From the IMG/VR virus record IMGVR_UViG_2541047165_000024: 9,704 nt of DNA. One strand, given 5' to 3'. The notes beneath the pieces are model-generated. The model worked only from the letters and a program-made list of their open reading frames with translations. It did no database searches and was not told the origin of the DNA. This DNA comes from a virus. Its lineage: Duplodnaviria > Heunggongvirae > Uroviricota > Caudoviricetes. A program made the position numbers and the translations under genes. Each line of letters opens with the position of its first letter. Within the stretch, counting starts at the first letter, position 1. This document shows, piece by piece, positions 1-9,704 of this stretch.

Positions 1-1131
1 TCAAATGACCAGTTTTTTCCATTCCTTACCGCGTGCGTCGTTGTAAATATCGGTCATTTTTTGATTCGAATGGCCTAGCAAAATTTTGGTATCAACCCCC
101 TGCTCTCTGAACAATCGCTCTGATAAAGATCTCTGCTCATGGAAAGAGGGAGGGGTGCCATTAGCACGCCAGTTGTAATCCACAGAATCCCGGGCTTTTT
201 TAAATGCAACGGTTAATGTTGCTGGCTTAACCATCCCGCCGCGCTTAGCTGTCCCTTTCGCGTGATGGTGGTGCAATAGCCACGGACTAAGAACGCAATC
301 GCGGCAGGATGACACCACATCATCCAGGGTGAGATTTAATTTATCGCAACGCAGAGCCAGAGGGATGGCAATCCGGGTTCCTGTTTTTTGCTGTTCGACA
401 TGAAGATAACCATCCCGGATATCCGAAAATTGCATTTTGCAAATATCTGAAAGGCGCTGGCCTGTCATCAGTGCCAGCAGCATACCGCGCTGTAAAAAGT
501 AACCATCCTTTTCCGCTGCGTTATAAATCATCATCCACTCATCAAAAGTCAGTCGCTGTCTTGATATCCGCACCTGCGGTTTTTTTGCCGATTCTGCAGG
601 GTTAAAGCCTGGCGGGACATCGCCCGTTTGCTGAGCTTCCCGGAAAACATCGATCAGTACTTTCCTGAAAATTTGTCCCATTCTGTTATGTCCTCTGGCC
701 TTGTACTCTTCCAGTACTGATACCACATCTTTTACGGTTATGGCATCTAACGGTCTGGTGCCAAAACGTTCATCAAATACCCTGAGAGGGGCCGCTTTCT
801 GTTTCAGCGTGTTGAGTTTGATCTCGCCGTTTTCATATCTTTCCTGTTGAATTTTTCTGTAATTATTCAGAAAAATGGTAACGGTTGATGAACCGCCGGT
901 ATCACTAATAATTTTCTCCTGCAGACTGAGCATTTGTTCCATTTGCTGCCGGGCAAGACGGCTGTTCGCTTCTGCTGCAATAGTTTCTGCCAGTTTCTGG
1001 TCAATACTGCCGAGACCGTGATTTTTGCCTGTTATGGGATGCCTGTAACGCCAGTAAACTTTGTTATTTCTTTTGTCAAAATACGGAGATAATCCCGGAA
1101 CATCGGTTTTATATTTTCGCGGGCGCGCCAT
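1..1131 (-). CDS. int: Tyrosine-type site-specific integrase (phage integrase family), complete 376 aa
   Basis: Full-length minus-strand ORF whose stop codon is at bases 1-3. The C-terminal region has the catalytic-domain architecture typical of tyrosine recombinases (…LLGHSNQKMTDIYNDARG…). Its start overlaps the upstream xis-like ORF, the classical xis-int arrangement. Family assignment is from recalled motifs, not a search. Confidence 0.93.
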   Translation of the reverse strand: MARPRKYKTDVPGLSPYFDKRNNKVYWRYRHPITGKNHGLGSIDQKLAETIAAEANSRLARQQMEQMLSLQEKIISDTGGSSTVTIFLNNYRKIQQERYENGEIKLNTLKQKAAPLRVFDERFGTRPLDAITVKDVVSVLEEYKARGHNRMGQIFRKVLIDVFREAQQTGDVPPGFNPAESAKKPQVRISRQRLTFDEWMMIYNAAEKDGYFLQRGMLLALMTGQRLSDICKMQFSDIRDGYLHVEQQKTGTRIAIPLALRCDKLNLTLDDVVSSCRDCVLSPWLLHHHHAKGTAKRGGMVKPATLTVAFKKARDSVDYNWRANGTPPSFHEQRSLSERLFREQGVDTKILLGHSNQKMTDIYNDARGKEWKKLVI

Positions 1132-1357
1132 CTTCCAGTATCCTCTTCAAAGCAGGGTGATCTGTGGCGATCACCTCCGGCTTGTTTACCATTCCGACAA
1201 AGCGAGCTTGCGGATCCACTCGCCAGCGTCTTCCAACTTTTTTGGGGAGAGGAAATATCATTCCGGCTTTAGCGTATTTACTTAACGTACTCGGAGTTGG
1301 GACCGGTTCACTGAATTCCTCTTTTGCCCACTCAGTGAGCAGAATAAGTCTTGCCAT
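1109..1357 (-). CDS. xis: Excisionase-like small DNA-binding protein (Xis/AlpA-type)
   Basis: An 82-aa basic ORF immediately upstream of int on the same strand, overlapping the int start by 23 nt. Position and size fit a lambdoid excisionase. The exact start codon was not verified. Confidence 0.75.
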   Translation of the reverse strand: MARLILLTEWAKEEFSEPVPTPSTLSKYAKAGMIFPLPKKVGRRWRVDPQARFVGMVNKPEVIATDHPALKRILEDGAPAKI

Positions 1358-1421
1358 GAGCGTCGTTCGCTAATCATGGTCGCCGCCACTATAGCTGGTG
1401 GGCAACGACCGGGGTTGAACA

Positions 1422-1859
1422 TTAAAAATCAGCCTGATTCGGGATCAGTTTTTGCCAGATAACTGAAACGTATTTTGCCTGGTAACGGGCGTCATCAAGT
1501 GCATTATGGCGCTCACCTTCGAATGGAATAGCCGTTCTGGCATCGAAGTCTATGGCTTTCCCCAGCTCAACGATTGTGCGTACATCGCGATCGTTGTAGT
1601 AACGCCACGGGCAGGGGATCCCCTGCCGTTCGTATGAACGGCGCAAAATCGTGTTGTCGAAGTTGGCTCCATTTCCCCAGACCTGAACAAAAAATTCACC
1701 GGAGTTTTCGTCGATAAATTCCCGCAATTGTAACAGTGCATCATCTAACGGGATTTCATCGGTCATAATGGCAGATTGCGCTTCGCGTGATTGCTTAAGC
1801 CACCATTTAATGGTGTCCCTCGCCGTGTGCTTTCGTGTTGTGTGCCTGCTTTTTACCAC
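1422..1859 (-). CDS. DEDDh (DnaQ-like) 3'-5' exonuclease domain protein, apparently 5'-truncated (possible pseudogene or remnant)
   Basis: The translation contains an Exo II-like motif (VWGNGANFDNTIL) and an Exo III-like motif (HNALDDARYQAKY). No Exo I D-x-E motif is present. The frame opens with GTG at 1859, and translating upstream hits a stop after about 15 unrelated codons (around 1905-1907). The catalytic N-terminus therefore looks replaced by unrelated sequence. Confidence 0.65.
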   Translation of the reverse strand: MVKSRHTTRKHTARDTIKWWLKQSREAQSAIMTDEIPLDDALLQLREFIDENSGEFFVQVWGNGANFDNTILRRSYERQGIPCPWRYYNDRDVRTIVELGKAIDFDARTAIPFEGERHNALDDARYQAKYVSVIWQKLIPNQADF

Positions 1860-1883
1860 GTCAGGCGAGGTGGTCCCCGTTAT

Positions 1884-1929
1884 TCCCCAACAACAAGGAT
1901 CTTGTTAATCTGGATATCCCCAACAACAA
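1884..1929. repeat. Two direct copies of TCCCCAACAACAA spaced 33 bp apart, in the junction/promoter region upstream of the accessory ORF
   Basis: Read directly from the sequence: the 13-mer occurs at about 1884-1896 and 1917-1929. It sits between the truncated exonuclease and the divergent plus-strand ORF. Any function (regulator binding site or recombination scar) is inference. Confidence 0.6.
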
Positions 1930-1943
1930 TAAGAGTATTGAAT

Positions 1944-2459
1944 GTGATCGCTGAATTAACGGCAGCAATGACGGCTATTCGTGAAACCGCCCAGATTGCA
2001 AAACTAATGAACGAGGCAAAAACTCAAGCTGAAGTAAATGCGGCTATTGGTGAACTGAACTCAAAGCTTGCATCTATTCAGCGCGAATGCGTGTCTCTCG
2101 TTGAGCTGGTGGGCACTTATCAAGAAATAAATGCTTCTCTCAAAGCTAAAATTGCAGAATTTGAAAACTTTGAGGCTCAGACGGAAGGTTATATCCTTAG
2201 CCAACTTGAGTCGGGAACTTTTGTGTACTCGAAGGAGGTAACCGTGAACGGCGGCAGCATAATCATGCATCTTTGTCCAAAATGTTTTGGACAAAAGATA
2301 GTATCGATACTTCAGCCATTCCCGGTTAGAGAATATGAATTTTTTCATAAAAGCAGGTGCCTGTACTGTGAAAATCAGTTTCTTATGAATAAAAATCCGG
2401 ATTACGTATCACCTCCATCTATTGAAGAGTTGGCCAGAAAACTGAACGGCAATCTGTAG
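1944..2459 (+). CDS. Uncharacterised coiled-coil plus Cys4 zinc-ribbon protein (about 171 aa), candidate accessory or defence moron
   Basis: The long plus-strand ORF ends at TAG 2457-2459. The track's 1791 start overlaps the exonuclease gene and gives an implausible N-terminus. More plausible starts are GTG 1944 (preceded by AAGAG), TTG 1938 or ATG 1968. The N-terminal half is heptad-like and low in complexity (…AKLMNEAKTQAEVNAAIGELNSKLASIQRE…LKAKIAEFENFEAQ…). The C-terminal half carries CPKC and CLYC motifs about 25 residues apart. Codon composition is visibly AT-richer than the flanking genes, judged by eye and not computed. I recognise no named family. Confidence 0.6.
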   Translation: MIAELTAAMTAIRETAQIAKLMNEAKTQAEVNAAIGELNSKLASIQRECVSLVELVGTYQEINASLKAKIAEFENFEAQTEGYILSQLESGTFVYSKEVTVNGGSIIMHLCPKCFGQKIVSILQPFPVREYEFFHKSRCLYCENQFLMNKNPDYVSPPSIEELARKLNGNL

Positions 2460-2496
2460 ATTTTTACTGTTATGGATATCCAGATTGTTAAAGAGC

Positions 2497-2523
2497 ATGC
2501 CGGATGCTTGCTTGTGTCCGGCG
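2497..2523. terminator. Hairpin (GCCGGA-N12-TCCGGC) between convergent genes, a possible weak bidirectional terminator
   Basis: Inverted repeat at about 2499-2504 and 2517-2522, in the 114-bp gap between the plus-strand ORF (ends 2459) and the minus-strand small ORF (ends 2574). On the minus strand it is followed by AUGCUCUUU. There is no strong U-tract, so this is a weak call. Confidence 0.3.
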
Positions 2524-2573
2524 CGTGTGCACCACTCTCCCCCCGTGGAGGATTCCTTAATTACCAGATTTCA

Positions 2574-2804
2574 TTAGTCAGAGTTTCTTGCTAACCAGCG
2601 ACGCGCGCCAGATTCGGTTTTAAACGTTTTGCTTTTGGTATACGTCATCGCGGTGAACGTGCCGTCCTGGTTGGGAAACACGCCGCACACCAGAGATTCG
2701 TTGTTGCCAAGATCAAGAGTATCCATGCTGACCTCATATCCCCTTAACGCCGGGGTAGCGGAACAAAAACCTGCTGCATAGTTAAAGTTGAACCCTGCCG
2801 TCAT
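2574..2804 (-). CDS. Small hypothetical protein (76 aa), first gene downstream of the leftward pL-like promoter
   Basis: Minus-strand ORF with ATG at 2802-2804, preceded by GAGG about 9 nt upstream. It lies about 95 nt downstream of a near-consensus sigma-70 promoter that is overlapped by operator palindromes. It has no arginine-rich N-terminus, so it is not N-like. Function unknown. Confidence 0.5.
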   Translation of the reverse strand: MTAGFNFNYAAGFCSATPALRGYEVSMDTLDLGNNESLVCGVFPNQDGTFTAMTYTKSKTFKTESGARRWLARNSD

Positions 2805-2899
2805 GTTCTTACGCCTCGGGCTGGCTACTTAATCCCTGACCACTGCCGGGTAACTCTAGGTATTGCCCTGTATTGTGTGGGACGGGATGGGTTGGTATG

Positions 2900-2950
2900 G
2901 GAAAACTATAGGAAATGCCTAATTGCTTGTCAATAGGCTACGCCTAATGA
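2900..2950 (-). promoter_or_regulatory. Leftward pL-like promoter (-35 TTGACA, 17-bp spacer, -10 TATAGT) with overlapping operator sites (OL)
   Basis: On the minus strand the sequence reads TTAGGCgtaGCCTATTGACA-agcaattaggcatttcc-TATAGT. The -35 is at plus 2928-2933 and the -10 at 2905-2910. One operator palindrome abuts the -35 (about 2932-2947). A second TTAGGC half-site pair lies across the spacer and -10 (about 2908-2922). The layout is a mirror image of the cassette on the other side of the repressor gene. Confidence 0.6.
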
Positions 2951-3005
2951 TTTGGGTGCGACCTAATAGGTGATGGTTTGTGGGAGAGGTAGTAGGAGTT
3001 AACTA

Positions 3006-3027
3006 ACGGGAACTAGGAATTTCCCGT
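3006..3027 (-). terminator. Hairpin (ACGGGAA-N8-TTCCCGT) just downstream of the repressor stop, a candidate terminator or insulator
   Basis: Inverted repeat at 3006-3012 and 3021-3027, directly after the repressor stop (3042-3044) on the minus strand. The trailing sequence is only moderately U-rich (UAGUUAACU). Confidence 0.3.
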
Positions 3028-3041
3028 CGGACCATATAAGT

Positions 3042-3518
3042 TTAAGTTCCTGTCTTGGTGATGTTCTGGCTTTTCCGTTTTGATTCTTGATTTTTCAGAT
3101 AGTTAGCTACCTTCATTTCCATTGCGGCAATGTAGGCACGAACGTCATGATCAACCCAACTAGGCTCCGTAGCATTTCCAGATAAGAGGAAAGCCACAAT
3201 TGCTCTTTTTTCATCAGAGGCGGCTTGATAAAGGCTGTTTATGTCTAAAAGTTCACTTTTTGTATCTGAAGTGGATGGGGTTGGTATGGGGTATTCGTTA
3301 AGCCCCCAATGCTCTGGACCAACCACATCAGAAAAGAAACGCCATAGTTCTGGAAGTTTGTCTTTACTTATCGAACCTTTCTTAATCCAGTCATGGATTG
3401 ATGGTGGTTGGACTTTGAAATGACGTGCGATTTCCGCCTTTGATTTGACGGCTCCTGATGCAATTTTTTTGTTAATGGCCTGCTCTATCGCTCGGCCTAA
3501 GTCTTTACCACTAAGCAT
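3042..3518 (-). CDS. racR: Prophage immunity repressor, HTH (XRE/CI-like) without a LexA-type peptidase domain; RacR-like
   Basis: 158-aa ORF with an N-terminal HTH region (…KSKAEIARHFKVQPPSIHDWIKKGSISKDKLPELW…) and an AGGAGA RBS. It is divergent from a Cro-like gene and flanked on both sides by operator-bearing promoters. Size and context match the RacR position of Rac-type prophages. The symbol is given as a family-level analogy only. Confidence 0.85.
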   Translation of the reverse strand: MLSGKDLGRAIEQAINKKIASGAVKSKAEIARHFKVQPPSIHDWIKKGSISKDKLPELWRFFSDVVGPEHWGLNEYPIPTPSTSDTKSELLDINSLYQAASDEKRAIVAFLLSGNATEPSWVDHDVRAYIAAMEMKVANYLKNQESKRKSQNITKTGT

Positions 3519-3544
3519 TGCTTAATAGTCTCCTATGCGCATCG

Positions 3545-3616
3545 CATTAGGCAATACCTACTCTCGAAGCGTTAGGCATAGCCTATTGACAGTTGCATTA
3601 GGCTAAGCCTAATATT
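3545..3616 (+). promoter_or_regulatory. Rightward pR-like promoter (-35 TTGACA 3586-3591, -10 TAATAT about 3610-3615) with three operator-like palindromes (OR)
   Basis: Operators read from the sequence: TTAGGCaatACCTAC (about 3547-3561), TTAGGCataGCCTAT (3572-3586, abutting the -35) and the near-perfect TTAGGCtaaGCCTAA (3598-3612, overlapping the -10). This is a classical tripartite operator over divergent promoters. Confidence 0.65.
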
Positions 3617-3642
3617 ATTGTGTGTTTTTTGGAGTTCATTCG

Positions 3643-3966
3643 ATGAAAAAAGATAACTATTCATTCAAACGAGCTTGTGCTGTTGTCGGTGGGCAATCAG
3701 CAATGGCTAGGCTTTTAGGTGTATCTCCTCCAAGCGTAAATCAATGGATCAAAGGTGTACGTCAGTTGCCTGCTGAGAGATGTCCTGCGATTGAACGAGC
3801 AACAAAAGGTGGTGTCCTGTGTGAAGAACTTCGTCCTGATGTTGATTGGACATACTTACGACGCTCGTCATGTTATTCGCAGAATATGTCGATGAAGCAA
3901 CCAAATGACGAAAACGATCATACCCGAAGCATCAAGAGGCAAATGATTCATGAAAATCAAACATGA
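3643..3966 (+). CDS. ydaS: Cro-like HTH regulator of the YdaS type
   Basis: ATG at 3643 with GGAG 8 nt upstream. The track's GTG at 3622 gives an unlikely extension. The HTH region (…ACAVVGGQSAMARLLGVSPPSVNQWIKGVRQLPAERCPAIE…) is typical of Cro/YdaS-like proteins encoded divergently from the repressor. Confidence 0.8.
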   Translation: MKKDNYSFKRACAVVGGQSAMARLLGVSPPSVNQWIKGVRQLPAERCPAIERATKGGVLCEELRPDVDWTYLRRSSCYSQNMSMKQPNDENDHTRSIKRQMIHENQT

Positions 3967-4375
3967 GCACATCCGCATGGCGATGAATGCCTGGGCATAT
4001 CCTGATGGTGAGAAAGTTCCTGCAGCTGAAATAGCCCGGACTTATTTCGAACTGGGGATGACGTTCCCGGAACTGTACGACGACAGCCATCCGGAAGCCC
4101 TGGCTCGTAATACCCAGAAAATTTTCCGTTGGCTGGATAAAGACACCCCTGATGCTGTTGAAAAAATGCAGGCTCTGTTACCGGCGATCGAAAAGGCAAT
4201 GCCGCCTCTGCTGGTGGCCCGTATGCGCAGTCACAGCTCTGAATATTACCGTGAGATCGTCGAACGGAGGGATCGGCTGGTGAAAGATGTGGATGATTTT
4301 GTCGCAGCGGCGATCGCCTGGGGCACCCTGACTAACAGTGGGGGTCAGCCTGGTAATGCTGTTGTCGTGCATTGA
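3950..4375 (+). CDS. ydaT: YdaT-like protein (prophage toxin-like, repressor-controlled)
   Basis: 141-aa ORF overlapping the end of the ydaS-like gene by 17 nt, so probably translationally coupled. The N-terminus MKIKHEHI… and the position directly after the cro-like gene match the YdaT family of Rac-like prophages. Assignment is from recall, not a search. Confidence 0.78.
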   Translation: MKIKHEHIRMAMNAWAYPDGEKVPAAEIARTYFELGMTFPELYDDSHPEALARNTQKIFRWLDKDTPDAVEKMQALLPAIEKAMPPLLVARMRSHSSEYYREIVERRDRLVKDVDDFVAAAIAWGTLTNSGGQPGNAVVVH

Positions 4376-4437
4376 CCAACAATATTCATGCCGGATTTCT
4401 TCCGGATGTTCGAGGGTAAAGTTCGGTATCAGATGAG

Positions 4438-5481
4438 GTGAGTATGGCTAATGCCTGGCTCAGATTGTGGCATGACATGCCAAATGATCCCAAATGGCGA
4501 ACCATTGCCAGGGTCTCAGGACAGCCAATCGCAACAGTGATGGCGGTGTATATCCACCTTCTGGTGAGTGCGTCACGAAATGTCACGAAATGTCACGGCG
4601 AGTCACTACGTGGTCACATTGATGTCACGACGGAAGATTTAGCAAGTGCGCTTGATGTGACGGAAGACGTGATTGATTCAATTTTGCATGCAATGCAGGG
4701 GCGAGTTCTGGATGGCGATCTTATTTCCGGATGGGAAAAACGCCAGGTGATGAAGGAGGATAACGGTAATGTTTCGCAAACCGCAAAATCCCCGGCAGAG
4801 CGCAAGAGAGCGCAGCGGGAGCGGGAAAGACTGCGGGAGCAGAACACTGATTGTCACGATGAGTCACGACGCGTCACGCATATGTCACGACAAGTCACGA
4901 CAGATACAGATACAGATAAAGAATTAAACCCCACACATAACGCGCGCATGCGCGAGAGTGCTCCAGCCAGTGAGTCGAATGGCGCGCCGTTGCAGACAGC
5001 AGAACCTGAATACCCGGATGGCCTGAGCGAACCGATCGGGAAATTTCCGATGACTGGTGTCTGGCGGCCGTCGCTGGATTTTCGACAGCGGGCTGCATTG
5101 TGGGGTATGGCTCTGCCTGAGCCTGAGTTTACACCTGCTGAGCTTGCCGCATTCCGGGATTACTGGATGGCGGAGGGGAAGGTTTTCACGCAGGTTCAGT
5201 GGGAGCAGAAATTTGCCCGTCACGTGCAGCACGTCAGGGCACAGGTAAAACCAGTCAGCAAGGGGGTAAGCCATGCAGCACCAGGTGGCACCGCATCACG
5301 GGCAGTTCAGGAAATTCGGGCAGCACGTGAACAGTGGGAACGTGAAAACGGATTTATCAGCAACGGAAACGGCCTGGAAGCTGTGGGAACTTATGGGGGA
5401 GGTGTATTCGAACCGCTGGACCCAGAAGAACGGGGCTGCGCCGTCGAAGCTCTGGATTGCTCAGATTGGCGCGATGACTGA
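4438..5481 (+). CDS. Replication initiation protein (lambda O-like functional analogue or replisome organiser) with embedded origin iterons
   Basis: 347-aa ORF; the start is GTG 4438 or ATG 4444 after GAGGTG. It lies immediately upstream of a lambda P-like gene. The coding sequence contains two clusters of GTCAC repeats at helical spacing, the hallmark of an ori inside an O-type gene. Confidence 0.8.
   Translation: MSMANAWLRLWHDMPNDPKWRTIARVSGQPIATVMAVYIHLLVSASRNVTKCHGESLRGHIDVTTEDLASALDVTEDVIDSILHAMQGRVLDGDLISGWEKRQVMKEDNGNVSQTAKSPAERKRAQRERERLREQNTDCHDESRRVTHMSRQVTTDTDTDKELNPTHNARMRESAPASESNGAPLQTAEPEYPDGLSEPIGKFPMTGVWRPSLDFRQRAALWGMALPEPEFTPAELAAFRDYWMAEGKVFTQVQWEQKFARHVQHVRAQVKPVSKGVSHAAPGGTASRAVQEIRAAREQWERENGFISNGNGLEAVGTYGGGVFEPLDPEERGCAVEALDCSDWRDD
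4572..4628. repeat. Iteron cluster 1: six GTCAC(G) repeats at 10-11 bp spacing (putative ori component)
   Basis: GTCAC occurs at about 4572, 4582, 4592, 4602, 4613 and 4624, read directly from the sequence. Confidence 0.75.
4853..4918. repeat. Iteron cluster 2: five GTCACGA repeats at 10-11 bp spacing, followed by (ACAGAT)x3 and an A/T-rich stretch (putative ori core)
   Basis: GTCACGA occurs at about 4853, 4863, 4873, 4884 and 4894. It is followed by cagatacagatacagataaagaattaaa. Confidence 0.75.
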
Positions 5482-5935
5482 ACAGCAAATCCGGCAGGTC
5501 TGCCGTCAGTGCATGGACCGCTGCCGGGCGGGTGAAACGTGGCCTCCGGACCTGGCTGAGTTTGTGGCGTTGATTTCGGAGAGCGGGGCAAATCCATTTG
5601 GCCTGACGGTGGATGCCGTGATGGAGGAGTACCGTCGCTGGAGGAATGAATCCTGGCGGTACGACGGGAGTGATAAATACCCGTGGCCACAGCCGGTGCT
5701 GTACCACATTTGCCTCGAGATGCGTGACAGAGGGATTGAGCGGCAGATGACGGAAGGTGAGTTAAAACGACTTGCAGAACGGCAACTGACGAAATGGGCA
5801 AAGCAAGTTGGTAACGGGATGAGTATTCCCCCGATCCGGAGACAACTCGCATCGCCGAAGTGCCCGCAAGGGCCAACGCCAATTGAATTACTGAAACAGG
5901 AATACGAGCGCCGGAAGGCGGCTGGTTTTGTTTGA
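5273..5935 (+). CDS. Lambda P-like replication protein (helicase loader)
   Basis: ATG at 5273 is preceded by a strong AAGGGGG SD. The C-terminal half aligns by eye with lambda P (ours: WPPDLAEFVALI…DKYPWPQPVLYHI…MTEGELKRLAERQL; lambda P: LPSPGQFVAWC…ESYPWKSNAHYWL…LTDAELRRKAADEL). It overlaps the 3' end of the O-like ORF by about 209 nt in another frame. Confidence 0.8.
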   Translation: MQHQVAPHHGQFRKFGQHVNSGNVKTDLSATETAWKLWELMGEVYSNRWTQKNGAAPSKLWIAQIGAMTEQQIRQVCRQCMDRCRAGETWPPDLAEFVALISESGANPFGLTVDAVMEEYRRWRNESWRYDGSDKYPWPQPVLYHICLEMRDRGIERQMTEGELKRLAERQLTKWAKQVGNGMSIPPIRRQLASPKCPQGPTPIELLKQEYERRKAAGFV

Positions 5936-5968
5936 ATCTGAGAAACGATTTTGTCGGAGGAAATTTTA

Positions 5969-6685
5969 ATGGAAACCGTATCTGACGCACTGAAAGCACT
6001 GAAAAGAGCCTCTTCACATGTGGTGGCAGCTCGCCTTGGAATTAGTCGTGAAGAGGCTGTCAACGAACTGTGGAAACTGAAACGCCGTGGAGAAGCGGAT
6101 AACAAGGGGGCGATATGGTGGCTGACTCAGGCTGGTGAAAGTGAACCGGTGTCACCGGTACCGAAAGTGACGGCGCAAATGCTGACAGAGGCGATTGAAC
6201 AACATGGCCCACAAACGGCGGATGAACTGGCATTGATGTTCGGAATTACCTCCCGCCGGGCGAATTCATCGCTGGCAATGGCAATCAGCAAAGGGTGTCT
6301 GATTCGCGTGAATCAGGATGGTAAATTTCGTTACTGCATACCGGGCGTTGATTTACCGGCAGAGCCGAAAGCAGCATCCGTAGCTGAAACGGAGGGTAAA
6401 GCCCTTCCTCAGCCAGCTGGTGTTGCGTTACCAGTCCAGGAAACGGCTGCACAGGAAGAAATTAAAACAGAAGCGGTGGAGGACATTGTGAAGTTGCAGC
6501 AATCGTTCACTGAAGCGAAAGCAGATGACCTGATTCTACCATCGCTGCATGTGGCTAACCGCGAGCTGCGCCGGGCGAAAAGTAATGTTCAGAAGTGGGA
6601 GCGAGTCTGTGCTGCGCTACGGGAACTGAACAAACACAGGGATATTCTCCGGGATATTACCGCCACCAGAGAGCAGCAGCGGTGA
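5969..6685 (+). CDS. Hypothetical protein with two winged-helix-like repeats
   Basis: ATG at 5969 with GGAGG 8 nt upstream; the track's TTG at 5951 is unlikely. Two internal segments resemble each other (…[23 protein letters not shown]… and …[31 protein letters not shown]…). No Walker motifs are present. Confidence 0.65.
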
Positions 6686-6999
6686 GTGGCTGGAAGAAGT
6701 GGCGCTGGGCTGAAATCCTGATACTCCGGCAGTGTGCGGGAACGATGAGAGTCGAAAGCATCGGTTATCTGATTGGCCGTAGTGAGTCAGCCGTCAGGAC
6801 GAAAGCGCGGGAACTGGGTATCAGCATGATGTTACGGGGTGATTATCACCAGTCAGCCAAATGTTCACAGCGTGATATTGAGCTGGCGTGGCAACTGCAT
6901 CAGCGTGGTGTACCCCGACGGGAAATTGCCGAAAAGTTTGGGATGAAGTTGGGCGCAGTGAATAACTACGTTTATTTCGACAGGAGGGTTCAGGAGTGA
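6682..6999 (+). CDS. Small hypothetical protein with two HTH-like segments (possible DNA-binding)
   Basis: A GTG start at 6682 overlaps the upstream stop (GTGA), giving about 105 aa. The track's ATG at 6595 lies inside the upstream gene. The start choice is inference. Confidence 0.5.
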
Positions 7000-7298
7000 G
7001 GGTGAGGGTTTATATCGCCGGTCCGATGACGGGATATGAAAATTTTAACCGCGAGGCATTTCACAAAACGGAAGAGGTGCTGAAACGGGAAGGGCATACC
7101 GTTTTAAACCCGGCAGTACTTCCGGACGGGCTGACTCAGCCACACTACATGGATATTTGCATGGCAATGCTCCGTTGCGTGGATGCGGTTTACATGCTGA
7201 AAGGCTGGCAGCAGTCGGCAGGTGCAGGGGCTGAGCTGGCACTGGAGGAGAAACCGGGCCATGCGGTGATTTTTCAGGAGGTGGGCAGTGAATATTGA
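6996..7298 (+). CDS. DUF4406-like (nucleoside 2-deoxyribosyltransferase-like fold) protein
   Basis: N-terminal motif VYIAGPMTG…NFNREAF…VLNP, typical of this Rossmann-like family common in prophages. GTG start with GGAGGG upstream. Confidence 0.72.
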   Translation: MRVRVYIAGPMTGYENFNREAFHKTEEVLKREGHTVLNPAVLPDGLTQPHYMDICMAMLRCVDAVYMLKGWQQSAGAGAELALEEKPGHAVIFQEVGSEY

Positions 7299-7605
7299 CC
7301 CGGCGATAACGATTGATATGGCCCTGAACGCCGGCCTGGCACTTCTTGGTTATTTCTACATTATGTTCTGCAGCGGACGATGGCTGTCACTGTTGTTCAT
7401 GAAAAAATGGAATAAACGCCGTAAGCAGGAGCAACGCCAGAAGGCAATGGATGCATTTTTCGAAGCCTTCGGAATTGACGGCATGGAACCAGGGGATCCA
7501 GCTCGCGCAATCAGCAGAGGGGGTGTAGTAATCCTTGTATATCGGAGTGAAGAGAAAAATGACGATCACAAAACAACGTGTAGAAGAAATCATATCCCGC
7601 ATTGA
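7288..7605 (+). CDS. Small predicted membrane protein (single hydrophobic helix followed by a basic stretch)
   Basis: GTG at 7288 with AGGAGG 6 nt upstream. Hydrophobic segment ALNAGLALLGYFYIMFCSGRWLSLLF followed by KKWNKRRKQEQRQK. The 3' end overlaps the next ORF, so the true extent is uncertain. Confidence 0.45.
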   Translation: MNIDPAITIDMALNAGLALLGYFYIMFCSGRWLSLLFMKKWNKRRKQEQRQKAMDAFFEAFGIDGMEPGDPARAISRGGVVILVYRSEEKNDDHKTTCRRNHIPH

Positions 7606-7876
7606 AATGTATGGACATGGTGCAGGGTATATCGCAGACGAGGTTAATGATCTGGCTATACTGGCGCTGAATTTATCAAATATCGCGAACCTGAAGCGAT
7701 ACGAGCTTGATATGGGAGGTTGCGACTCGTGCGGTCAGGATTGTGGCGCTGATATGACTGAAGATCCTGATGGTGATTATGTCCTGTTTGATGACGTGGT
7801 TAAGTTGTTTGAATTTGATACAACCACTCAAAAGTTAGAAATCCCGGCAAAGGAGGCAGCCAGTGGGCAAGATTGA
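7559..7876 (+). CDS. Hypothetical phage protein with an acidic C-terminus
   Basis: ATG at 7559 after GAAGAG; the track's TTG at 7535 is less likely. No recognisable motif. Confidence 0.55.
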   Translation: MTITKQRVEEIISRIEMYGHGAGYIADEVNDLAILALNLSNIANLKRYELDMGGCDSCGQDCGADMTEDPDGDYVLFDDVVKLFEFDTTTQKLEIPAKEAASGQD

Positions 7877-8300
7877 CTATCAGGCACTGCGTGAGGCAGC
7901 ACAAAACTATCAATCGACGCTGGCGTGGTATCAGGCTACCCCGGACAGCCCAAATGCTGAACGGGATTGTGATGCGGCTCTTGCTGCGTTTAAGCGTCAC
8001 ATCCGTCATCGGGAAGCGGATATTATCGCTGATTTGCTGGATGGACTGGAAGAAGCAAAATCACAACTCAACGAGCAGCGTGAGTATTACGAAGGCGTTA
8101 TCTCTGATGGGAGCAAGCGTATTGCTGAACTGGAAGCGCGGGAAGTTCAATTACCGACTCGCTACGACCTTCGATATGGACACCCGATAAATGCAGATGA
8201 GCGACATGTCATGATACCTAAAGAAAATGGCAGTTGGCTTTACCTGATTGACCTAGAACACGCATTACGCGTCGCTGGCATTCGCATCAAAGGAGAGTGA
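7863..8300 (+). CDS. Hypothetical coiled-coil phage protein (Ea22-region-like)
   Basis: GTG at 7863 with AAGGAGG 6 nt upstream. It overlaps the upstream stop and is tightly packed with its neighbours. Confidence 0.65.
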   Translation: MGKIDYQALREAAQNYQSTLAWYQATPDSPNAERDCDAALAAFKRHIRHREADIIADLLDGLEEAKSQLNEQREYYEGVISDGSKRIAELEAREVQLPTRYDLRYGHPINADERHVMIPKENGSWLYLIDLEHALRVAGIRIKGE

Positions 8301-8301
8301 G

Positions 8302-8493
8302 ATGAACGGACAAATATCAATTGTTCGACCAGGAGCATGTGACGATCGCGAAATACGAATGATTATTCGTCTGGCGATGGGGAAAACAATAACTGCTCTC
8401 ATTACTCCAGAAAATCTCGCATTAGCATTAACAGGAAAGTCAGACATGCCAGTAGAGCTAAAGCTGCGAAATGTTGAGATTAAGGTGAAATAG
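8302..8493 (+). CDS. Small hypothetical phage protein (63 aa)
   Basis: ATG at 8302 with AGGAG 6 nt upstream, 1 nt after the previous stop. Confidence 0.6.
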   Translation: MNGQISIVRPGACDDREIRMIIRLAMGKTITALITPENLALALTGKSDMPVELKLRNVEIKVK

Positions 8494-8495
8494 CT

Positions 8496-9083
8496 ATGAC
8501 CACTATTACCAAAGATCGACTGCTGACAATCCAGCATTGGCGCGAAACATACGGACCGGGTAGCAACGTTGTGCTTCCAGCAGAAGAAGCGGAAGAGCTG
8601 GCACGGATTGCGCTGGCATCACTGGCAGCAGTATCGGATGAACGAGCAGCCTATGAATTATTTATGGAGAAGCGTTTCGGAGAATCTGTAGATCGCCGCA
8701 GAGCAAAAAATGGCGATAGAGATTACATGGTATGGGATATGGCGCTTGGCTGGATTATCTGGTGTCACCGCGCCGCCATGCTTCAGGCTGGAAACTTTCG
8801 GGAAAATAAGGGTTCGTCAACCAATAATTTTCGGGAAATCTCGGAAACGTCAACCAACTATCCGGTAACTCCGGATGGTTGGATAAGCTGTAGTGAGCGA
8901 ATGCCGGATGATGGTCAGCACGTAATTATTTTATGTGATGGCGCATTCGTTCTTTATGCGCAATATCGAGACGGTGAGTTTTTTGATGTAGTCCGTAATG
9001 GTGATGAATTTTTCGAAACACAGAGCCGCAATGTAACCGACTGGATGCCGCTACCAGAACCGCCGCAGGAGGTGCGCCAATGA
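8496..9083 (+). CDS. DUF551-domain phage protein
   Basis: The C-terminus carries the characteristic DUF551-type motif (…WISCSERMPDDGQHVIIL…NVTDWMPLPEPP). ATG at 8496 with AAGGTG upstream. Confidence 0.75.
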   Translation: MTTITKDRLLTIQHWRETYGPGSNVVLPAEEAEELARIALASLAAVSDERAAYELFMEKRFGESVDRRRAKNGDRDYMVWDMALGWIIWCHRAAMLQAGNFRENKGSSTNNFREISETSTNYPVTPDGWISCSERMPDDGQHVIILCDGAFVLYAQYRDGEFFDVVRNGDEFFETQSRNVTDWMPLPEPPQEVRQ

Positions 9084-9333: not shown

Positions 9334-9434
9334 GGTAAAAACGGTTTGCGGTAAAGCGAGAGTTAAGTAGAATTGCTGCGGGTGCTTGAGGCTGTCTGCC
9401 TCGGGCATGCCACCGTAAGGTAGACAGAGAAAAG

Positions 9435-9505
9435 CCCCAGTTAACATTACGCGTCCTGCAAGACGCCTAACATTAATCTGAGGCCAATTTCATGCTAGAC
9501 ACATG
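9435..9505 (-). ncRNA. sok: Predicted sok-like antisense RNA of the hok locus
   Basis: This is inference. A candidate minus-strand promoter (-35 TTGCCT at plus 9530-9535, 17-bp spacer, weak -10 TAACCT at 9507-9512) would start a transcript near 9500. That transcript would be antisense to the mok SD (GAGG about 9480-9483) and start codon (9492), as in hok/sok loci. The 3' end and terminator were not identified. Confidence 0.3.
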
Positions 9506-9704
9506 TAGGTTAGCCTCTTACGCGCCGAAAGGCAAGGAGAAGCAGGCTATGAAGCAGCAAAAGGCGATGTTAATCGCCCTGATCGTCATCTGTATCACCG
9601 TCATAGTGACGGCACTGGTAACGAGGAAAGACCTCTGCGAGGTACGAATCCGAACCGGCCAGACGGAGGTCGCTGTCTTCACAGCTTACGAACCTGAGGA
9701 GTAA
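9492..9704 (+). CDS. mok: mok-like reading frame (in-frame N-terminal extension overlapping hok)
   Basis: ATG at 9492 with GAGG 8 nt upstream. It reads in frame through hok to the same stop, consistent with the mok/hok arrangement in which mok translation is coupled to hok expression. Confidence 0.65.
   Translation: MLDTCRLASYAPKGKEKQAMKQQKAMLIALIVICITVIVTALVTRKDLCEVRIRTGQTEVAVFTAYEPEE
9549..9704 (+). CDS. hok: Hok/Gef family type I toxin (HokD/RelF-like), 51 aa
   Basis: Translation MKQQKAMLIALIVICITVIVTALVTRKDLCEVRIRTGQTEVAVFTAYEPEE is unmistakably Hok/Gef family. ATG at 9549 with AAGGAGA 8 nt upstream. The stop TAA is the last codon of the window. Confidence 0.92.
   Translation: MKQQKAMLIALIVICITVIVTALVTRKDLCEVRIRTGQTEVAVFTAYEPEE

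Follow-up and report, generated by a model that had tools for sequence, protein, structure and literature searches.

The subject of this work is a single gene in a stretch of 9,704 nucleotides from a virus of the Caudoviricetes (IMG/VR record IMGVR_UViG_2541047165_000024). This whole stretch, here called the window, is the int-proximal end of a Rac-like Escherichia coli prophage. The gene is a lone moron on the plus strand, next to a truncated exonuclease gene, and its product is very probably a divergent, previously unannotated member of the Rip1 (ring interacting pore 1) family. In the following we describe the locus, the evidence for this assignment, the slot that the gene occupies and the function that we propose for it.

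The features of the locus are collected in Table 1. The int, xis, exonuclease, DUF1391 and racR-like genes are all on the minus strand, and beyond the racR-like repressor gene follow ydaS/ydaT-like genes and then replication genes on the plus strand. An initial annotation, made without database searches, had described the gene as the only one between xis and the repressor outside the lambdoid backbone, as running against the leftward early operon and as richer in AT than its neighbours. It is indeed the sole plus-strand gene from xis to the repressor. The compositional difference is modest but real, with a GC content of 0.39-0.44 in the open reading frame (ORF) versus 0.46-0.52 in the flanks.

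A program-made list of ORFs contains the gene within a longer open frame (1791-2459, plus strand). We take the GTG at 1944 as the real start, because the 516-nucleotide RefSeq coding sequence for WP_000559928.1 starts at the same place, the N-terminus 'MIAELSAAM' is conserved in homologues and a Shine-Dalgarno-like AAGAG lies upstream.

Table 1. Features of the locus, with positions counted from the first nucleotide of the window. pLDDT is the predicted local distance difference test score of the AlphaFold2 model.
Feature	Position	Strand	Remarks
int	1-1131	minus	
xis	1109-1357	minus	
Truncated exonuclease ORF	1422-1859	minus	
3' remnant of 2.47-kb exonuclease gene	1422-1819	minus	Rv2179c-like domain; junction 1819/1820
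Upstream region of the cassette, conserved and presumably regulatory	1820-1943	plus	Holds the 30-nucleotide element and the direct repeat
30-nucleotide element	1844-1873		GCCTGCTTTTTACCACGTCAGGCGAGGTGG; single occurrence in the window
13-nucleotide direct repeat, two copies	1884-1896, 1917-1929		TCCCCAACAACAA
Inverted repeat, left arm	1907-1932		Core AATCTGGATATCC, containing palindrome GGATATCC
Shine-Dalgarno-like AAGAG	1932-1936	plus	7 nucleotides before GTG; conserved in three cassettes
Gene assigned to the Rip1 family	1944-2459	plus	171 residues; GTG start, TAG stop at 2457-2459; RefSeq WP_000559928.1, 'hypothetical protein'
N-terminal helical region	1944-2180	plus	Residues 1-79, helices 2-24 and 28-79; pLDDT 76-97
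C-terminal beta-rich Cys4 domain	2193-2393	plus	Residues 84-150, six strands; pLDDT 93-97
First CxxC pair, C111-P-K-C114	2274-2285	plus	Invariant in alignments; also in HK446 Rip1
Second CxxC pair, C139-L-Y-C142	2358-2369	plus	Invariant in alignments; also in HK446 Rip1
Inverted repeat, right arm	2461-2486		GGATATCCAGATT; just past the stop codon
GC-rich 10-bp stem-loop	2498-2523		Between the convergent Rip1-family and DUF1391 genes
DUF1391 gene	2574-2804	minus	
racR-like repressor gene	3042-3518	minus	

Assignment to the Rip1 family

Remote-homology searches with the protein gave a divided outcome. The collections of named families, i.e. Pfam, NCBIfam and PADLOC (2023), yielded nothing beyond coiled-coil noise below the threshold, whereas profile and fold searches both led to Rip1. 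Foldseek against the PDB gave two significant matches only, chains 9oox_M and 9oox_L (E 4e-7 and 7e-7), at 28% identity and a probability of 1.00; the TM score, when normalised on the target, is 0.70. The title of PDB entry 9OOX names ring interacting pore 1 (Rip1) with the small terminase of phage T6. A profile built from 49 family members matches chain 9oox_L at E 1.6e-30, with profile positions 4-151 aligned to 14-159 of the 164 residues of the chain and both CxxC pairs covered.

Pairwise comparisons with single phage proteins point the same way. By BLASTP the protein is 27% identical to gp37 of phage HK446 (AFH20665.1; E 5e-13), whose residues equal those of the 9OOX chain wherever both are shown, and 30% identical to gp30 of Pseudomonas phage JBD30 (E 6e-20). 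HkaP of phage HK620 was found by tblastn at about 29% identity (E 1e-12). The HkaP proteins of HK620, HK629 and HK630, which fall into phrog_1244, belong to the same family as the window protein and to a different clade; they are annotated as 'unknown / putative superinfection exclusion protein'. In PHROGs, the window protein itself matches phrog_1244 at E 1e-57, and the label there is 'unknown function'. Homologue clusters numbered 109 in the first search and 188 in the profile search, all of them unnamed. An exhaustive profile search recovered 3,878 representatives (50% identity, E<=1e-3), 2,563 of these at E<=1e-10, and nearly all members are 145-180 residues long. A fold search of BFVD gave nothing significant, and a literature search for 'hkaP' returned unrelated papers only.

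Sequence homology, the fold, an amphipathic helix without a transmembrane segment and the setting as a lone, separately oriented moron are thus all found together. The initial annotation could not place the protein in any named family and took its function to be undescribed. That view has to be given up in favour of a clear homologue of Rip1 (PDB 9OOX) within phrog_1244 and, as the Rip1 family and its mechanism have been in print since 2026, the gene represents a known kind of system and not a new function.

The architecture first proposed, an N-terminal coiled coil followed by a C-terminal Cys4 domain, is borne out by structure prediction and by the invariance of the cysteines. The AlphaFold2 model, made with a 49-sequence alignment, has a mean pLDDT of 90.6; besides the two regions listed in Table 1 it contains a C-terminal tail (residues 152-171) with a short helix at 160-167. 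The four cysteines of CPKC...CLYC, namely C111, C114, C139 and C142, do not vary in alignments of 21, 35 and 49 sequences. In the model they lie in or beside strands and turns of the beta domain, and they are putative zinc ligands. Y95 and Q46 are invariant in the same alignments and a V-Y...ILQP signature is nearly so; within the C-terminal domain, conservation falls on V94, Y95, I122, L123 and P125 as well as on the four cysteines.

The N-terminal part is amphipathic, with hydrophobic moments of 0.37-0.44 for segments within residues 7-54. The protein has no signal peptide and no transmembrane segment, the maximum Kyte-Doolittle mean over 19 residues being 1.13. By homology with Rip1, the N-terminal helical region would be the pore-forming part, and the Cys4 beta domain the part that contacts the phage ring.

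Could such a protein instead be a regulator? Binding to nucleic acids or RNA polymerase is common among Cys4 zinc ribbons, the combination of a coiled coil with a C4 motif loosely recalls DksA, and a conserved, palindrome-containing repeat flanks the ORF. On this explanation the product would be a nucleic-acid-binding or regulatory zinc-ribbon protein, modulating transcription or replication with a DksA/TraR-like layout, and would not be a defence effector. However, neither the DksA/TraR family (PF01258, zf-dskA_traR) nor any DNA-binding family matches in Pfam at E<=1, the C-terminal part folds as a beta domain of six strands and not as the globular domain of DksA, and Rip1 is the sole significant fold match. 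We therefore consider a regulatory role highly improbable.

Comparison of alleles adds to the picture of the Rip1-family gene. The dN/dS ratio relative to the 94.6%-identical O103 allele is 0.14, and purifying selection, as judged from the coding sequences, acts on the gene. Nine of the ten amino-acid changes between the O157-type allele and the O103 and other alleles lie in the C-terminal domain (84-150), and six of the ten at residues 129-145, between the CxxC pairs. This stretch may be a surface that determines specificity.

The cassette, its slot and its flanks

The gene occupies a position whose content differs between related prophages. In Rac of E. coli K-12 the slot holds sieB (7172-7660, locus coordinates), and similarity to the window sets in again at 2593, within the DUF1391 gene. 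In an O26 prophage whose int, xis and exonuclease 3' end are identical, the exonuclease gene is full-length but frameshifted, it is accompanied by a DUF1482 gene and dicB, and a Rip1 homologue is missing from the slot. The prophage of E. coli strain C012, which retains an intact 823-residue exonuclease gene and dicB, carries a 74%-identical copy (3824-4384, locus coordinates); this is probably a pseudogene, because it is split into ORFs of 75 and 97 residues. The window holds an intact copy. As the position beside DUF1391 and racR thus contains sieB, contains a Rip1 homologue or is empty, it behaves as a site at which Rac-like prophages swap defence genes. The suspicion that the slot is variable and carries known defence genes elsewhere was therefore correct: sieB is the example in K-12 Rac, and the gene is not uniformly conserved in related prophages.

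Among 5,426 complete E. coli genomes, 738 carry the gene, always on the chromosome; the carriers include 287 genomes at an identity of at least 99% and 316 at 90-95%. Unrelated prophages of the yfdP/yfdQ type have a cassette of 661 bp (1836-2496) in common with the window, at 93.6% identity, and in them it again adjoins the repressor gene on the opposite strand. The relatives in other phages are similarly placed as single morons. HK446 gp37 and HK620 hkaP are plus-strand genes between cIII and N, inside the leftward early operon, and gene 30 of JBD30 is antisense between terminase genes.

What happened to the adjacent exonuclease gene? The initial annotation had the moron inserted at a broken exonuclease gene that had lost its catalytic N-terminus. 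The loss itself is confirmed, as the ORF product matches only positions 47-177 of the 177 positions of the Rv2179c-like domain (E 1.2e-46), the domain start is absent and RefSeq describes the gene as 'incomplete, missing N-terminus'. Insertion is not what the comparison with full-length-exonuclease prophages shows. The 100% identity to those prophages stops at 1819, and homology to the region upstream of the Rip1-like gene of C012 begins at 1818. In the window the junction reads GGTGTCCC|TCGCCGTG, in the O26 exonuclease gene GGTGTCCC|GATCAATG and in C012 CAGCTACC|TCGCCGTA. The break is a deletion junction at 1819/1820; the deletion ended at the left edge of a resident cassette, fusing the interior of the exonuclease gene to the conserved region upstream of a moron that was already there. 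Compared with a layout like that of C012, the window lacks about 2.96 kb, i.e. the 5' 2.08 kb of the exonuclease gene, the DUF1482 gene, dicB and a spacer.

The window as a whole is a mosaic, since its parts match different prophages. Over positions 1-1819, which hold int, xis and the exonuclease 3' end, it shows 100% identity to prophages that adjoin ompW in strains of O26, O103 and O145. Over positions 1413-8850 the match, at 99.96% identity, is to the prophage adjoining potC in O157:H7 EDL933, and the int and xis of that prophage are unrelated. No complete E. coli genome among the top matches listed contained window positions 1-2000 in one piece.

The sequence upstream of the Rip1-family gene is better conserved than the cassette at large. 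In a three-way alignment with C012, positions 1800-1975 (mostly upstream) have a mean column identity of 88%, and the whole cassette (1818-2318) is 74% identical to C012; the difference suggests regulatory constraint. The 30-nucleotide element in this region recurs at about 97% identity in the sister prophages of C012 (5395-5426) and O26 (12304-12336; both in locus coordinates). In C012 it lies about 40-70 nucleotides upstream of an unrelated plus-strand gene for an 'ECs_2282 family putative zinc-binding protein'. The element may be a regulatory module common to different morons. It has no Rfam match and no clear promoter consensus, and Rfam finds nothing between 1750 and 2650.

The ORF is also flanked by an imperfect inverted repeat of 26 nucleotides, 81% complementary with an exact core of 13 nucleotides, and this core is kept in other cassettes, including the 74%-identical one of C012. 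It could be a pair of operators or mediate pairing between the 5' and 3' untranslated regions. We also considered the arms as ends of a transposable element and rejected the idea: homology of the cassette reaches 70 nucleotides past the left arm (1836 versus 1907), and the inverted repeat is at the same time a direct repeat, because part of it is a self-complementary palindrome.

On the other side of the gene, the stem-loop at 2498-2523 is also present where the cassette is absent (O26 prophage, 11339-11405, locus coordinates), and a second hairpin at 2448-2489 spans the stop codon. No T-run comes after the second hairpin, nor after the stem-loop on either strand, and the fold z-score reaches only -1.6. 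Inspection by eye yielded no more than weak -35/-10 candidates, which we did not take as features. The gene had been called insulated, bracketed by a repeat-bearing upstream region and a convergent hairpin; the repeats and the hairpin are there, and the insulation is not demonstrated, given that the scan recognised no terminator and no sigma-70 promoter near the ORF and that the hairpins have no T-run. As a separate observation, a near-consensus sigma-70 promoter (TTGACA-17-TATAGT, 11 of 12 matches) lies on the minus strand at 2905-2933, between the racR-like and DUF1391 genes. Leftward transcription from it would meet the 3' end of the Rip1-family gene head-on.

In a prophage that has lost about 3 kb of its early-left operon, the gene might simply be a decaying remnant without function. 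The truncated exonuclease gene next door, the split copy in C012 and the want of a recognised promoter would all fit such an origin. That said, the ORF is intact and retains every family-invariant residue, both signs that it is likely functional. The low dN/dS reported above, the many genomes carrying the gene at 90-95% or at least 99% identity and an upstream region that is better conserved than the coding sequence speak against decay as well. A functionless remnant is therefore unlikely in our opinion.

Proposed mode of action

The primary source on Rip1 is Patel et al., Nature 651:1060 (2026), which is cited in section 8 of PMC13434031 and in PMC12908700. According to the account of Rip1 in PMC13434031, the protein is harmless without phage. 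Escape mutations fall in the Pseudomonas phages' portal gene and in the gene for the small terminase of E. coli phages. Twelve Rip1 subunits assemble round an 11-mer ring of small terminase; the N-terminal part is an amphipathic helix, and the C-terminal half touches the ring. The same account states that a pore is present in the complex, and reports release of dye from liposomes and holes in cells that lead to premature lysis. Relatives of Rip1 are described as common across Proteobacteria and mainly prophage-borne. The meeting report PMC12908700 and PMC13601566 agree with this account where they deal with Rip1.

For the window copy we propose a corresponding course of events. The resident prophage would make the Rip1-family protein, which would be harmless by itself. 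Late in the infection by a superinfecting phage, a ring-shaped packaging protein would assemble, and the Cys4 beta domain (about residues 84-150) would bind round this ring; the reported triggers are the small terminase for E. coli phages and the portal for Pseudomonas phages. The ring would then act as a template for a Rip1 oligomer, as in the solved complex with 12 subunits round an 11-mer small terminase. Brought together in this manner, the amphipathic N-terminal helices (about residues 1-79) would form a pore in the inner membrane. The cell would be permeabilised early, and the infection would abort before the progeny are complete. We infer expression of the window copy, its triggering by a phage ring and the formation of a pore from these parallels, and we assign a probability of roughly 0.8 to the reading that it acts as a ring-triggered, pore-forming abortive-infection defence. 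Our confidence is lower for any specific trigger.

If this is right, a gene that many pathogenic E. coli carry, O157:H7 among them, and that is still a 'hypothetical protein' in RefSeq, gains a concrete and testable function: the sensing of small-terminase or portal rings and the formation of pores. This is of relevance for phage therapy and for the biocontrol of Shiga-toxin-producing E. coli, as well as for the competition among lambdoid prophages in these strains. The first guess that this accessory moron, set against the early-left operon, serves superinfection exclusion or abortive infection was a step in the right direction.

The closest parallels are Rip1 of HK446 and the Rip1 of a Pseudomonas aeruginosa prophage studied by Patel et al. 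The HK446 protein is homologous to the window protein over almost its full length (164 versus 171 residues) and has the same predicted fold. Both proteins combine an amphipathic helical N-terminus with a Cys4 beta domain in which all four cysteines are conserved, and both are encoded by a lone antisense moron of a temperate phage. The settings differ, as the window gene lies in a Rac-like prophage by the DUF1391 and racR-like genes and the HK446 gene in the early-left operon of a lambdoid phage with N antitermination. HK620 hkaP has the same plus-strand position in a leftward early operon.

SieB of K-12 Rac is the counterpart by position. Its gene is in the equivalent slot, antisense to the early-left operon and beside the DUF1391 gene ydaF. 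SieB is expressed from the prophage and aborts superinfecting phages. It is an inner-membrane protein, and in this it differs from the window protein with its lack of a transmembrane segment. BLASTP gives E 40 for similarity to SieB, and there is no SieB among the Pfam results.

Several points weigh against a ring-triggered pore as the function of the window copy. Identity to the two characterised or solved relatives compared is only 27-30%, therefore the specificity for the trigger, and even the activity, may differ. The C-terminal tail (152-171) of the clade to which the window protein belongs is absent from the HK446 and JBD30 proteins. No model in PADLOC-DB (2023) matches the protein. Consensus scans found no sigma-70 promoter or intrinsic terminator for the ORF, so expression in the prophage is assumed. 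Finally, the entry for JBD30 gp30 in Valentova et al. 2024 reads 'moron gene; blocks phage genome injection (Tsao et al. 2018)'. This statement concerns a Pseudomonas protein of the same family and is older than the mechanistic work.

The last point leads to a different explanation, classical superinfection exclusion, in which the protein would block the DNA of an incoming phage at the envelope as a functional analogue of SieB, the occupant of this slot in Rac and in lambda. The entry for JBD30 gp30 supports it, as do the 'putative superinfection exclusion protein' annotation of HK620 hkaP and the presence of sieB in the K-12 Rac slot. However, the HK620 annotation is positional guesswork, and the window protein has neither a signal peptide nor a transmembrane segment nor any similarity to SieB. 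In the solved structure, the homologue is in complex with T6 small terminase, a cytoplasmic protein that is made late. An entry block is also incompatible with the escape mutations that PMC13434031 reports in portal and small terminase. We consider it improbable and continue to favour abortive infection through a ring-triggered pore.

Two further defence systems were compared. For RAZR (PD-T7-4), the ring-activated zinc-finger RNase, the description in PMC13017515 is of a Cys4 zinc-ribbon-type sensor that rings the portal or Gp77 and activates an effector. Like Rip1, RAZR places a Cys4 domain as an outer ring on ring-shaped packaging proteins of the phage; the effectors differ, being a HEPN RNase in RAZR and a pore in Rip1. 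The window protein ends after its Cys4 domain, Pfam detects no DUF4145/HEPN in it and no RAZR chain is among the fold matches listed. PADLOC, whose library we expect to contain a PD-T7-4 model, returned for the window protein a spurious REase_I match at E 0.04 alone. The relation to RAZR is one of analogy, not of membership.

The second is Tab (tail assembly blocker, JBD26 gp31), whose slot is shared by the Pseudomonas homologues of the window protein. PMC10884400 presents Tab as a protein of 83 residues that acts on the tape-measure protein and has an anti-Tab gene as its partner, adjacent to it after the small-terminase gene; according to the passages on Tab there, it resembles no other protein and occurs in close relatives of JBD26 only. 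Identity of the window protein with Tab was rejected, and the two are unrelated. Tab has 83 residues and needs anti-Tab, and the window protein has 171 and no partner gene; furthermore, phage DMS3 carries a homologue of the window protein and yet is sensitive to Tab.

There is also a more speculative extension of the proposed function. The enterobacterial clade may recognise another class of phage oligomer than Rip1 of HK446 and Pseudomonas phages, a thought raised by the 27-30% identity, the extra helix at 160-167 and the concentration of allelic changes between the CxxC pairs. The upstream element and the inverted repeats may in turn control the gene, forming an undescribed expression or mobility module that defence morons of prophages share. 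We regard this combination as doubtful, if less so than the alternatives discussed above.

Elsewhere in the window, its far end holds a hok/sok-type toxin-antitoxin locus (9380-9704). Rfam sok (RF01794) matches at 9380-9554 on the plus strand (114 bits, E 5e-26), and within this match begins a Hok-like ORF (9492-9704), which reaches the end of the window.

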